This document shows, piece by piece, positions 24,001-27,000 of a stretch of DNA of 64,000 nucleotides. Numbering within the stretch: the first letter of the stretch is position 1; each line of letters starts with the position of its first letter. Source of the stretch: Candidatus Aenigmatarchaeota archaeon (GTDB taxonomy: Archaea > Aenigmatarchaeota > Aenigmatarchaeia > CG10238-14 > SCSR01); NCBI GenBank assembly GCA_038998335.1, contig JAVZHQ010000001.1:544001-608000 (forward strand), given 5' to 3'. The position numbers are program-made.

Positions 24001-27000
24001 AGCAATGCAAAAAAGCTTTGGAAGTAACAAAAGAGCTAGCGAAAGAAATTAAAGATGAAGAAAAAGAAAAATTAATAAGTAAGATAAAAGAAGAGGAAAA
24101 TAAAGCCTTAGAAGGTTTTGGTTCGATATTTGGTTGAGCGCTGGTAGTCCAGCCTGGTTAAGACGCAGAACTTAGCGGAACCCTGCCACGGCTGAAACGC
24201 GGGTTCAAATCCCGCCCAGCGCATAATTATTTCAAAACTTTTGATAGAGTTTCTTTCTATGCCCAACTTCCAGGACAAAAACAATCAAACTTTTACCTTC
24301 TATGGCTAAAATAGCTCTATAATCTCCAACTCTTAAAGTGTAGAGGTTTATTCCCTTAAGTTTCTTTACAAACTTGAACGGGTTTTCGCTAATTCCTTCA
24401 ACTTTTTCCACAATTTTTTTACTTATACATTTTTCAAGCTTCTTAAGCTGTTTTAAAGCTGTTTCTGTCCACTTAACTTCATACTTCATCTTATTCCCAG
24501 TTTTTTCTTCACTTCTTTTGTAGAAAATACCCTACCTTCCTTTATGTCTTTTAATGCTTTCTCTATATTTTTTAATGTTTTTTGACTTAGTGGCTCTTCG
24601 TCGATTCTGGCTTCGATTAAACGTTTGATTACCAAGTTGTAGGACTCTTTAGGATGAGATTTTAACTCTTCTAACATTTTTTTAACTTCTTCTTCTACTT
24701 GTATGGTAGTTGCCATAAGTAACTATAGATAGCTATAATATTTAAACCTTGTGAATTCCAATACTTTATACTACTAACGCAAAAAGTTATATTAATTCTA
24801 AACAAAATATTAAATGATTTGAATGCCTGTTTTTGGAAAAAAGGAAGAAGTAAAAAGAGGGTATGTTCCTACTGAAGAAGTTCTTGAGATGATGGAAAAG
24901 AAAATTCCTGAAGGAGAAATAATTGAAAGTTTAAGAAGAGGTGGGTTTTCACCAGATGAGATAGCTCAGGCTTTTGTCGAAGCTTCTAGGAAAATTTTTG
25001 CTAAGCCTGAAGTAGTTGAGAAAAAAGTTGAGGAAGTTAAACCAAAATTGGAAGAGAAGCCTAAAGAGAAAAAGGAAGAGAAGATTGAAGAAAAAAAAGA
25101 AGAGAAGCCTGAAAGTCCTCCAGTTTTTATAAAAGTTGAAAAGTATGATGAAATAGTTCTTGAGATGGGAAAGATAAAGGATATTCTAGAAGAATTAAAA
25201 AATATCCTTGTTTCCTTAAAAGAACTTGAGAAAACTAGAAAAGAAACTCTAGAGGAAATTCACAACATAAGTAAAGATTTGGAAGAAAGGGTTTCCAAGC
25301 TTTACTCTACATTTTTAAAACCTTATAGCTATGAGGAAGTACCTATAGAAGGAACAGAAGAAGTTGAGAATATAATAGATGAGCTTAAAAGCCAAATAGA
25401 AGAGTTGAAAAGCGAGATAGAAGTTTAAAAATAAAAGTTTAACTTTTTTAAAAGATTAAATCTTATTTAGGCAGGGGTTCCCGAGTCTGGTTAAAGGGGC
25501 AGGACTCAAGTCAGACTTGAGTTTTGATTCAAGATGAAAGAAATCCTGTGGCTTAGTGCCTTCCTGGGTTCAAATCCCAGCCCCTGCATTTACAAAACTA
25601 ATCTACTTTTTTCTTGGTATAAAACACAGTATTCTCTTGAGAAAAAAGCTCCTTAGGCATTATTCCACCTTTTTTAAGAGGAAAAAGATAAACTTCTCCT
25701 TTTTCTTTATCATAATATCTTGCAATAAGTAAATTGTTCTTGCAGATTATTGACATGAAATCATCAAAAGGAAGTTCGCTAAATTTCGTGTTAGAATTTT
25801 CAAAGGGGTTTATCCACTTCGCTTCTTCGATTATCTTTCCTTTTTCATCTGTTCTATGTGGCACCCAAAAAACATCTACAGGATAAAAAACTTCATCCTT
25901 GTACTTTATCTTATCCCAAAATTTCATTCGAATCAATTAGTTAATGTTAGTAAACAATTTAAGTTTTGCTACAAGAGCAAAAGGCAAAAGTTTTATTAGG
26001 CTTAAAACCATGGTTTAATTATCGAAAAAATGGAAGGCAAGCCTTTAAAAGCAAAAAACCTTAAGGTTATAGACCACTTGGGTACTCTTTATGCTACTTT
26101 TAACGGTAGCAGCATGTGGAAGCTTGACAAAGTTGCTTTTGGGATTTTAAGGATGTGTGACGGAAAAAGAAGTGTTGAAGAAATCGTTAACGAAATAGCG
26201 AAAAGAATTTCTCATAAGCCAGAAGACGTTAAGCCAATTGTAGAGGAAATTTTAAACGAATTAACAAGAATGAAGTTTATAGAATGGGTTTAGAGCTTTT
26301 TTCTTAACTTTTCTAGGATTTCTTCTTCTTTAACAAGCTCAGCAAACCTTTCTTTTAAGAACAAAAGTCTTGCTATCCCTATTTTCCTTTCAACAACTTT
26401 TCCTTCGCCTATAAGCTCATGCACGTATTTTGTTGCGGTAATTCTGCTCATCTTTGCTATTTTTGAGAGCTCTTGAATCGTTAGCCCATCAGGATGCTCT
26501 TTTAGAATGTTTAGAATAATTTCTTTTGAATATTGTTTTTTCCTCATATTTAATAATAGTGTTAAACATCAATATATAGTTTTTGATAGCTTGATATCGA
26601 GAATATCAAGTACTTAAATATTATTTGATATTGGGAATATCAATAGAAAAGGCTCTTAAGCCTTGAAATAAAGCTTGGTTTTTTGTAGTCTAAACCAGAA
26701 AGAAAATGAGCTATTTTAACAAACTCTTCAGCTTTTTTTCTTTTATAAAAAATTAAGGGCATCCTTGCTGCTTCGCTTCTCAAAAAGTCTTCATCCTCTT
26801 TTATTACCCCAAGCAAAGGAAGCTCTACAAGTTGAGAAATTTCTTTTGGTTTAAGCTCAAAATCCTTTTTCCTGTACTTGTTAACTATTATTCCCAAAGG
26901 GTTTATTCCAAGCTGAAGAGCAAGGTTTCTGCATTTTATAGCATCTACTACCGAAGCTATGCTCGGGTTTGTCACTATTATTATGTCATCGCTTGCTTGA

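Follow-up and report, generated by a model that had tools for sequence, protein, structure and literature searches.

The tRNA-Leu(CAA) gene analysed here belongs to a tiny hot-spring archaeon and lies in the window, by which we mean the whole stretch of 64,000 nucleotides under analysis. The gene carries a single 32-nt intron, and the question is what such a short element is kept for. The genome-wide survey's note had proposed that this intron and those of four other tRNAs are one-guide box C/D RNAs, which would direct 2'-O-methylation of the wobble nucleotide of their own pre-tRNA.

Anatomy of the tRNA-Leu(CAA) intron and its sisters

In a whole-genome search with the Rfam tRNA model the gene scored 39.9 bits, above the cut-off; ARAGORN with default settings and a window-wide Rfam scan both missed it. 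DNA contigs from hot-spring metagenomes covered the gene including its intron. Thirteen sequencing runs in six studies matched it, 12 of them hot-spring DNA metagenomes and one an RNA run, which contained 0.06 of the words and no RNA over 25376-25643, and thus says nothing on expression or splicing. The features, all on the plus strand, are as follows.

25471-25588, plus: tRNA-Leu(CAA) gene, class II, with a single intron (sequence, Rfam tRNA model, hand parse)
25505-25510, plus: anticodon-loop nucleotides 32-37, CUCAAG, with C34 (25507) as the proposed methylation target (sequence)
25507-25509, plus: anticodon CAA (sequence)
25511-25542, plus: intron of 32 nt at the canonical site, 37/38 (sequence; orthologous introns in relatives)
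25516-25523, plus: candidate guide, in which CUUGAG pairs with nucleotides 37-32 (sequence)
25524-25527, plus: D'-like box UUGA (GA invariant by parse; position 1 covaries with C' position 6)
25528-25533, plus: loop of the kink-loop, UUCAAG (length variable in relatives)
25534-25540, plus: C'-like box AUGAAAG, A-UGA-N5N6N7 (covariation analysis)
25537-25542, plus: intron tail AAAGAA, with the 3' splice site after 25542 (covariation in relatives)

The intron parses as UCAGA / CUUGAG / UU / UUGA / UUCAAG / AUGAAAG / AA, so that a complement of the anticodon loop is followed by two nucleotides, the D'-like box, a loop, the C'-like box and the tail. C34 pairs with G25519, the fifth base upstream of the D' box (N+5). 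U25522 (N+2) pairs with A31, and U25523 (N+1) is part of the kink-loop stem, where it pairs with G7 of the C' box; A5 and A6 of the same box pair with both U residues of the D' box. The first four bases of the tail face nucleotides 35-32 in an alternative, splice-type helix, two of whose four pairs form in this gene.

Re-reading the sequences confirmed that all five introns named in the survey share this plan, with nucleotide 34 at N+5. The sister genes are given below, the first three by their positions on the whole contig (C1) and the last by its positions in the window.

C1:785188-785307, minus: tRNA-Leu(UAA), 34-nt intron, same plan (sequence)
C1:663524-663633: tRNA-Trp, 35-nt intron, same plan (sequence)
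C1:405024-405132: tRNA-Met, 36-nt intron, same plan (sequence)
12995-13113, minus: tRNA-Gln(UUG) gene, interrupted by two introns, with U34 at position 13067 (sequence)
13030-13063, minus: 34-nt 37/38 intron of tRNA-Gln(UUG) (sequence)
13053-13058, minus: candidate Gln(UUG) guide UCAAAG, in which A13055 (N+5) pairs with U34
13051-13052, minus: spacer CU
13047-13050, minus: D' box CUGA
13041-13046, minus: loop
13034-13040, minus: C' box AUGAGGA
13030-13033, minus: tail

Two details of the earlier description had to be revised. The loop, given as 4-5 nt, measures 5-6 nt by the survey's own reading of the boxes, and the C' box, read there as GAUGA, is A-UGA-NNN: read as GAUGA, at positions 3-7, the box showed no covariation, whereas the latter reading covaries. 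The survey's 132 occurrences of the motif, which it leaves undefined, could not be reproduced. The Trp, Met and Gln modules resemble each other (CU-NUGA-AAAAA-GAUGA). The six minimal introns of this genome lack the terminal kink-turn boxes of a C/D sRNA, having neither a box C (RUGAUGA) ahead of the guide nor a box D (CUGA) beyond the C' box, and the 37/38 intron of tRNA-Tyr was without the strict kink-loop pattern.

Conservation, covariation and fixed register

In relatives we examined 134 loci, of which 120 could be parsed into 117 distinct introns, reaching to the level of the class; these relatives are non-independent samples. The complement followed by two nucleotides and NNGA was present in 115 of the 117 introns, 113 of them also having RUGA. 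The Trp loci included 14 from families elsewhere in the order and class, and every one of these fitted the plan, as did 24 of the 25 distinct Gln(UUG) introns of relatives. The orthologous Leu introns (27 distinct loci) were 26-46 nt long and the minimal introns of the lineage 20-51 nt overall; the 5' part varied from 3 to 15 nt, the loop from 2 to 11 (measured between the D' box and the first base of the C' UGA) and the tail from 1 to 14, in contrast to the fixed spacer. The 38 distinct Trp introns of the lineage had one guide (C34) and at most a D'/C' pair, with no guide for nucleotide 39. The kink-loop can be lost, since a guide-like stretch is retained in three introns of which two (L061, L073) have no C' box and one (L130) has neither box. 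Where introns are shortest (23-26 nt), the C' box and the tail strand of the splice helix share bases, and protein binding there could serve splicing control.

The GA of the D' box and the UGA of the C' box occurred together in 113 of 115 introns, in the form of an internal D'/C' kink-loop of a C/D sRNA, a structure built from tandem G-A pairs and a non-canonical stem. Position 1 of the D' box paired with position 6 of the C' box in 109 of 113 introns (U-A 61, C-G 43, A-U 4), and the U-A and C-G types were each found in all four tRNA families. Slid registers gave 50-66 pairs in 113, and the observed total was reached by none of 1000 shuffles. Judged by these compensatory sequence changes, the kink-loop is real and under selection.

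The boxes alone prove nothing, because the strict kink-loop pattern is rarer in the genome (355 occurrences on both strands) than in shuffles (452-480), yet common. The nine long 37/38 introns together span roughly 356 nt, for which the genome density predicts about 0.06 occurrences; the pattern was seen in eight of the nine, six of them minimal and two being full C/D RNAs. Among 116 shuffled introns of matched composition, the full architecture with a 2-nt spacer would be expected 0.045 times; with both elements detected independently, this spacer was observed in 108 of the 110 introns that held them.

In 110 of 115 introns the first pair of the guide duplex joined N+2 to nucleotide 31. This pair was present in all 27 Leu introns (U-A 11, C-G 16) and mismatched in 5 of 38 Trp introns; 76 introns had a contiguous duplex of 7 bp, and 33 had one of 6 bp. 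Position 1 of known C/D guides leaves the substrate unbound (PMC7229835), and the start at N+2 is thus like theirs. C/D sRNAs pair with their target over about 10 bp, from guide base 2 and with the target nucleotide opposite base 5; the N+2 start and the N+5 register agree with this, but the Leu, Trp, Met and Gln duplexes reach only 6-7 bp.

The same module outside the splice helix

An earlier caveat held that pairing with the anticodon loop is needed for splicing anyway. This largely falls, because the tail and not the guide makes the splice helix, and because the module is also found in the 5' leader of tRNA-Ser(UGA). The splice-type helix joins intron bases n-5 to n-2 to nucleotides 32-35 by 2-4 pairs. 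In relatives its C32-G and U33-A pairs are near-invariant, and Trp and Met show covariation at nucleotide 35. As to the splice motif itself, the 37/38 position fits and no outer helix was found by eye; a single EndA gene is present in the genome (C1:649574-649852; open frame of 193 aa). Nucleotides 32-35 are contested between the guide helix and the tail helix.

In the tRNA-Ser(UGA) leader, where no splice motif takes part, the module forms 10 Watson-Crick pairs with nucleotides 31-37 and intron bases 1-3, and U34 stands at N+5. It was present in 15 of 30 loci with duplexes of 8-11 bp, and compensatory changes were seen between nucleotide 31 and N+2 (G-C, locus L193) and between intron base 1 and N+9 (C-G, locus L194).

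The tRNA-Cys intron had been described as lacking clear pairing; we did find a clear pairing, with nucleotides 38-43. Its putative guide makes nine contiguous pairs, from i(n-2) to C43 in the 3' strand of the anticodon stem, with C39 at N+5. The pairing was identical in eight loci, and in L157 a G-U pair has become G-C through a U-to-C change. The sequence suggests a guide aimed at C39; the pairing is only suggestive, because 75 of 5000 shuffled Cys guides (about 1.5%) also reached nine pairs and there is almost no sequence variation for covariation.

A candidate half-mer guide and its rivals

L7Ae (C1:789289-789564), Nop5 and fibrillarin (both within C1:768736-770482) are all encoded in the genome, Nop5 with a full Nop domain, and full-length fibrillarin is present in 59 of 61 family genomes. 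The sequence comparisons, which bore out each prediction of the one-guide reading that they could address, point to the introns as natural box C/D guides with a single kink-loop, acting on their own pre-tRNA; we put the probability of this at about 0.65. Such a half-mer would consist of one guide and one C'/D' kink-loop, without the terminal C/D pair. Before splicing, the bases immediately 5' of the D' box would pair with nucleotides 31-36/37 of the same pre-tRNA molecule, L7Ae would bind the kink-loop and then recruit Nop5 and fibrillarin, and fibrillarin would methylate the 2'-OH of the nucleotide opposite the fifth guide base. In Cys this nucleotide is C39; in Leu-CAA, Leu-UAA, Trp, Met and Gln-UUG it is the wobble base, at position 34. 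The RNA would then refold, with the tail pairing with nucleotides 32-35 to form a relaxed bulge-helix motif from which the splicing endonuclease removes the intron. In this scheme we infer the protein binding, the methylation, the order of events and the action in cis. The short 6-7 bp cis duplex, the N+2 mismatches in Trp and the box losses are points against it, as are the C' overlap in the shortest introns, the bipartite build of the natural archaeal guides described so far, the lost specificity of a single-site complex (PMC1635284) and an 8-bp trans substrate that stayed unmodified in vitro (PMC7229835). On a broader scale, we incline slightly towards the view that a class-level DPANN lineage (Aenigmatarchaeota, going by how close relatives are labelled) wrote ribose-methylation guides for the anticodon arm into the target transcripts, in introns (nucleotide 34, and C39 in Cys) and in the Ser-UGA leader (U34).

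The closest known system is the intron of pre-tRNA-Trp (Haloferax volcanii; sR50, which is the Trp intron in Pyrococcus, PMC7994747). It is likewise a 37/38 intron paired with its own anticodon loop, C34 facing the fifth base counted from a D-type box, and its guide pairing and splice motif need different folds (PMC7994747, PMC2584109); its second known target, nucleotide 39, is the position at which the Cys intron points here. The known intron is a complete C/D'/C'/D RNA with two guides (C34 and nucleotide 39), 103 nt long in H. volcanii, whereas the introns described here have 20-51 nt, D' and C' boxes only and one guide, and their hosts extend beyond Trp to Leu-CAA, Leu-UAA, Met, Gln-UUG and Cys. 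In Pyrococcus, position 34 is a C/D sRNA target in Leu-CAA, Leu-UAA, Met and Trp (PMC7994747), and U34 of Gln(UUG) in Sulfolobus acidocaldarius is a predicted C/D target at which Um34 was seen (PMC7668247). The host tRNAs here match the position-34 C/D targets predicted or shown in Pyrococcus, Sulfolobus and Haloferax. Stand-alone sRNAs, namely the Pyrococcus guides for Leu-CAA, Leu-UAA and Met (sR49 for example) and the predicted S. acidocaldarius guide for U34 of Gln-UUG, share the tRNAs, the nucleotide and the N+5 rule (PMC7994747, PMC7668247, PMC2584109); unlike the present module, which lies within the target transcript, they are bipartite, encoded by separate genes and act in trans. Engineered half-mer or hemi C/D RNPs also have one box pair and one guide, but are laboratory constructs; half-mers with S. 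solfataricus and Chaetomium proteins are reported to guide site-specific methylation (PMC7229835), whereas a single-site (hemi) complex of P. horikoshii required high salt and lost site specificity (PMC1635284). A natural kink-loop half-mer fused to its own substrate was not found in the literature searched. All described natural archaeal guides are, to our knowledge, bipartite.

The kink-loop could instead be a landing site for L7Ae with a structural or timing role and no methylation: the anticodon loop would be held in a hairpin and the tail masked, so that folding is chaperoned, or splicing delayed or licensed. A single kink-loop and a short duplex suit this idea, and so do the weak or non-specific single-site complexes of one in vitro system (PMC1635284), the competition between the two helices, the C' overlap in the 23-26-nt introns, and a splice helix of merely 2-4 pairs, which an RNA chaperone might help. 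We nevertheless regard it as unlikely: it does not account for a spacer fixed at 2 nt, by which nucleotide 34 comes to stand at N+5 across five tRNA families, and it leaves unexplained the match of the host tRNAs to known position-34 targets, the module in a 5' leader far from splice sites and the Cys guide aimed at nucleotide 39. L7Ae-dependent tRNA splicing was also not found in the literature searched.

It seems quite unlikely that the module guides in trans, from an excised and possibly circular intron or from a second pre-tRNA, with a Nop5 dimer bridging two kink-loops, even though the full Nop domain would be in keeping with it and in vitro work favoured trans action of the Haloferax pre-tRNA-Trp intron (PMC2584109, PMC7994747). 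The Leu(CAA) guide could reach 10 bp on a second molecule by way of intron bases 1-2, but this extension is not conserved in relatives and several Leu introns mismatch at G37 or beyond. A 6-7 bp duplex would be weak in trans, where even an 8-bp substrate stayed unmodified in vitro (PMC7229835). The Ser(UGA) leader guide extends to intron bases 1-3 of the transcript that carries it, which is as compatible with cis as with trans action. That the boxes are functionless relics of full intron-borne C/D RNAs, or reflect shared ancestry of transposed introns, appears very improbable. Full C/D RNAs do lie within the tRNA-Ser(CGA) and Ser(UGA) introns, the likeness of the Trp, Met and Gln modules suggests common descent, and the motif by itself occurs often in the genome. 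Yet this reading is already disfavoured by the covariation of the aligned introns, in which each of the four families has preserved the stem of the kink-loop through compensatory changes; moreover, the spacer never drifts in length while all neighbouring segments gain or lose bases, and conservation extends to other families of the class.

If the introns are indeed half-mer guides, the old question of what short archaeal tRNA introns do would have a concrete answer, and their retention in a 1-Mb genome would be explained. Natural box C/D RNPs could then make do with a single box pair and an intramolecular duplex of 6-7 bp, and a switch between two RNA folds would order methylation and splicing. 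The bipartite guide design would not be obligatory, which bears on the in vitro half-mer dispute, on the minimal guide that can aim fibrillarin, and on the origin or decay of guide RNAs. The system is small enough to test (a 118-nt transcript and three small proteins), and the plan provides an annotation rule for tRNA genes skipped by standard tools (ARAGORN, Rfam defaults).

Almost no stand-alone four-box C/D RNAs were found in the genome: an exhaustive four-box scan, whose pattern may be too strict, gave three matches versus 1-3 in shuffles, one of the three being the Ser(CGA) intron, another an insert in 23S and the third probably due to chance. The guide-target searches were incomplete, as the 16S gene was not located. 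The D guide of Ser(CGA), UACUUGAAUU, was considered as a guide for C56 (Cm56), an idea made attractive by the missing Trm56; it was rejected, since its seven pairs with the common T-loop are not conserved, N+5 being A in locus L239 and the guide differing in L238, L240 and L241. In several genomes a methyltransferase gene adjoins tRNA-Trp; it gave weak fibrillarin matches and was set aside, as by its motif the protein looks more like a protein-L-isoaspartate methyltransferase.

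Anatomy of the tRNA-Leu(CAA) intron and of related introns

The tRNA-Leu(CAA) gene was identified by reading the sequence. It scored 39.9 bits, over the cut-off, with the Rfam tRNA model in a whole-genome run, and was missed by default ARAGORN and by the Rfam scan of the window.

Window 25471-25588, plus strand: tRNA-Leu, class II, anticodon CAA at 25507-25509
Window 25511-25542, plus strand: its 32-nt intron, between nucleotides 37 and 38

The intron can be divided into the segments UCAGA-CUUGAG-UU-UUGA-UUCAAG-AUGAAAG-AA, that is, a 5' part, a guide stretch, a spacer, a D'-like box, a loop, a C'-like box and a tail; the segments from guide to C'-like box are called the module below. 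The stretch CUUGAG is the exact complement of nucleotides 32-37 of the anticodon loop, and C34 lies opposite G25519, the fifth base back from the UUGA box (N+5, guide bases being counted upstream from the D' box). The genome-wide survey's note had described this plan, with N+5 facing nucleotide 34, in five tRNAs, and our hand parses of the other four agree with it, as C34 or U34 was found opposite the fifth base 5' of the D'-like box in each:

Leu(UAA) intron: CUUGC-CUUAAG-UU-UAGA-UUUCAAG-AUGAUAG-GAA
Trp intron: UUUAU-CUGGAG-CU-AUGA-AAAAAG-AUGAAUG-AAGAA
Elongator Met intron: AGCUU-UAUGAG-CU-UUGA-AAAAAUG-AUGAAAG-AUGAA
Gln(UUG) intron, window 13030-13063, minus strand: UCUCA-UCAAAG-CU-CUGA-AAAAAG-AUGAGGA-AGAA

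Our census covered the nine parsed 37/38 introns longer than 30 nt in the genome. The minimal module was present in six (Leu(CAA), Leu(UAA), Trp, Met, Gln(UUG) and Cys), two were complete four-box C/D RNAs (Ser-CGA and Ser-UGA), and the Tyr intron lacked the boxes. A strict kink-loop pattern matched 355 times on both strands of the genome, compared to 452-480 times in shuffles; since the pattern is not rare, the boxes alone are weak evidence. At the genome density about 0.06 matches would be expected in the approximately 356 nt of intron.

We also observed a second, 12-nt intron in tRNA-Gln(UUG), which interrupts the anticodon stem on its 5' side near position 29/30 (window 13072-13083, minus strand). 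The same anticodon-stem intron occurs in tRNA-Gln(CUG) (C2:98148-98244), together with a boxless 13-nt 37/38 intron. Two further tRNA genes with short insertions were indicated by Rfam in the window (23745-23826 and 24138-24223); the former, which ARAGORN names differently from mode to mode, was read by hand as Thr(CGU) with a boxless 10-nt 37/38 intron that has an AAGAA end.

Conservation of the register and covariation within the kink-loop

The Leu, Trp, Met and Gln genes were used as queries against 61 family genomes (27 genera), with 30 loci kept per search, and Trp was additionally searched in 201 genomes of the phylum, likewise with 30 loci kept.

Table. Introns among the loci kept; the plan is the anticodon-loop complement + 2 nt + NNGA.
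tRNA; loci; parsed; distinct; with plan
Leu; 30; 28; 28; 27
Trp; 44; 39; 38; 38
Met; 30; 27; 26; 26
Gln; 30; 26; 25; 24
All four; 134; 120; 117; 115

The RUGA C' box was also present in 113 of the 115 plan-keeping introns among the loci kept, although these counts overstate independence, the relatives being kin. Left unparsed were L021 and L029 (Leu), L060, L062, L066, L068 and L072 (Trp), L093, L096 and L099 (Met), and L111, L126, L129 and L133 (Gln), of which L111, L126 and L129 are tRNA-Gln(CUG) with boxless 12-13-nt introns. As to the exceptions, L031 was parsed falsely, at the end of a contig; L130 has lost both boxes, and L061 and L073 are without a C' box. The last of these is a tRNA-Trp from the same genus (G038); its 20-nt intron retains CUGA and the guide, and an AUGAAGA-like stretch is located upstream, in an extra insertion in the D-arm region.

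Of the Trp loci, 14 belong to other families within the order and class; the plan was kept in all 14, and some of their introns are just 23-26 nt long. Among the parsed relatives the intron length ranged from 20 to 51 nt, with 3-15 nt in the 5' part, 2-11 nt from D' to UGA and 1-14 nt in the tail. When the complement and the box pair were detected independently, the spacer was exactly 2 nt in 108 of 110 introns, against a composition-matched shuffle expectation of 0.045 per 116. This spacer, frozen while the neighbouring segments drift in length, is the main conservation argument.

We then aligned 113 introns on the invariant UGA of the C' box. The first base of the D' box pairs with the second base after UGA in 109 of them (U-A 61, C-G 43, A-U 4); U-A and C-G are both represented in all four tRNA families, with A-U found in Trp. 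When the partner was shifted by one or two bases the pairing fell to 50-66 of 113, and none of 1000 partner shuffles reached the observed total for the three kink-loop stem pairs. This is the C-G pair of the canonical CUGA/RUGAUGA, kept via compensatory change, and it follows that the C' box is A-UGA-NNN, with the preceding GA being part of the loop. The D' boxes that had been regarded as degenerate are thereby explained, each being matched by a compensating C' change (Leu-UAA UAGA with AUGAUAG, Trp AUGA with AUGAAUG).

The survey's note had cautioned that splicing in itself requires the anticodon loop to be paired. Beside the 3' splice site, however, nucleotides 32-35 face not the guide but the tail bases n-5 to n-2. 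C32-G and U33-A of this guide-independent pairing are near-invariant in Leu, Trp and Met, half of the tail boundaries in Gln being displaced by one base; C34 faces an A of the tail in all cases, and the tail changes in step with nucleotide 35 (C-G in 36/38 Trp introns, A-U in 13/26 Met introns). The anticodon loop can thus pair with the 5' guide stretch or with the 3' tail, but not with both at once; according to reviews, Haloferax pre-tRNA-Trp shows a two-fold behaviour of the same kind.

The guide duplex extends past the anticodon loop and into the spacer: the first spacer base, N+2, is paired to nucleotide 31 in 110 of the 115 introns (in Leu 27/27, U-A 11 and C-G 16), and the five mismatches are confined to Trp. 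N+1 behaves as a member of the kink-loop stem, and C/D guides are reported to start pairing at N+2 (PMC7229835). Contiguous guide duplexes of 7 bp were counted in 76 introns, and those of 6 bp in 33.

Putative guides in tRNA-Ser(UGA) and tRNA-Cys

Scanning of the tRNA flanks revealed a further module, in a leader. This module and the other features discussed here lie outside the window; the 23S rRNA gene is given as annotated by Rfam:

About C1:281372-281399, minus strand: module in the 5' leader of tRNA-Ser(UGA)
C1:281225-281370, minus strand: tRNA-Ser(UGA), whose intron is a complete four-box C/D RNA
C1:504696-504833, minus strand: tRNA-Ser(CGA), whose intron is a complete four-box C/D RNA
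C1:412614-415875: 23S rRNA gene (Rfam)
C1:414992-415041: four-box C/D-like RNA inside the 23S rRNA gene
C1:371541-371645: tRNA-Cys with module-bearing intron

The leader module reads AGACUCAAGG-U-CUGA-AUAAAG-AUGAGGA and is separated from the tRNA by a single base. Through 10 Watson-Crick pairs its guide matches nucleotides 31-37 together with intron bases 1-3, N+5 facing U34 and N+2 facing C31; because it pairs across the exon-intron joint, its target would be the unspliced precursor. The module was present in 15 of the 30 loci retrieved with the Ser(UGA) gene as query, the remaining 15 being other Ser genes or cut contigs, and compensatory changes were seen between nucleotide 31 and N+2 (G-C, L193) and between intron base 1 and N+9 (C-G, L194). 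This leader element is beyond explanation by any splice motif.

The survey's note had seen no pairing for the tRNA-Cys intron. We noticed that its guide (G37 plus UUGGUCUU, 5' of the D' box) forms nine contiguous pairs with A38-C43 and the three bases at the 3' end of the intron, which places C39 at N+5. An intron with an identical guide occurs in 8 of 16 Cys loci, and in L157 a G-U pair becomes G-C through a U-to-C change. As 75 of 5000 shuffled guides (about 1.5%) reached nine pairs anywhere, we consider the pairing suggestive only. In Haloferax, nucleotide 39 is described as the other known target of the guide RNA in the Trp intron (PMC7994747).

The four-box introns of Ser(CGA) and Ser(UGA) are 53 and 59 nt long. 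Seven relatives retain their D' guide core, C(U/C)GAGGUA, and the D guide is variable. The highest-ranking match for the D' guide was 10 pairs near C1:415345, within the 23S gene; no 16S gene was located in the genome. The C/D-like RNA in the 23S gene, which has an internal pair of the kind seen in the minimal introns (AUGA-AAAA-AUGAUUA), is flanked by an 11-base inverted repeat and is therefore probably an rRNA intron or insertion with a guide RNA. By the pattern used, four-box C/D RNAs are almost absent from the genome (3 matches vs 1-3 in shuffles), which suggests, short of proof, that much of the remaining work of the machinery is on tRNA. Trm56, the usual archaeal Cm56 enzyme, was not found in this genome and was found in only 2 of the 61 family genomes searched; no conserved guide for C56 was found in this genome or the family.

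Proposed role of the introns, alternatives and machinery

On the basis of these sequence comparisons, we estimate at roughly 0.65 the probability that the short introns are cis-acting half-mer C/D guides (a single box pair with a single guide), which would direct methylation of their own pre-tRNA to Nm34, and perhaps to Cm39 in Cys, ahead of splicing. This interpretation is supported by the anatomy, the covariation, the register, the independent cases and precedent. Reviews describe four Pyrococcus C/D sRNAs directed at nucleotide 34 of tRNA-Leu(CAA), Leu(UAA), Met and Trp, and sR50 among them is the Trp intron (PMC7994747); C/D-guide Trp introns are known from at least 29 archaea, Cm34 of tRNA-Met is directed by an sRNA outside introns (PMC2584109), and U34 of S. 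acidocaldarius tRNA-Gln(UUG) is a predicted C/D target at which Um34 was observed (PMC7668247). These tRNAs are the ones that host the minimal module. In the literature searched, mostly without subscription journals, neither a single-kink-loop guide occurring in nature nor guides carried by the introns of Leu, Met, Gln or Cys tRNAs were found to be described.

The introns could instead carry a site at which L7Ae controls folding or splicing, a reading that we regard as unlikely and that does not account for the module in the Ser(UGA) leader. A shade less probable is that the guide acts in trans. That the modules are a relic seems very improbable beside the compensatory changes. The in vitro record on the sufficiency of one kink-loop is mixed. 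A P. horikoshii single-site complex required high salt and lost site specificity, and in its authors' view specificity depends on the bipartite design (PMC1635284). In later work, half-mer RNAs with one C/D or C'/D' set directed methylation to specific sites when combined with proteins of S. solfataricus and Chaetomium, and an 8-bp substrate given in trans stayed unmodified (PMC7229835). An intramolecular duplex of 6-7 bp may be stable enough.

The genome (1,009,365 bases, 9 contigs, 33% G+C) encodes L7Ae and a Nop5-fibrillarin gene pair. Of the 61 family genomes, 59 have a full-length fibrillarin and the other two are 71% and 81% complete; the nearest fibrillarins in named records carry the label Candidatus Aenigmatarchaeota (79-92% identity). 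Near-identical DNA is present in hot-spring metagenomes from several studies.
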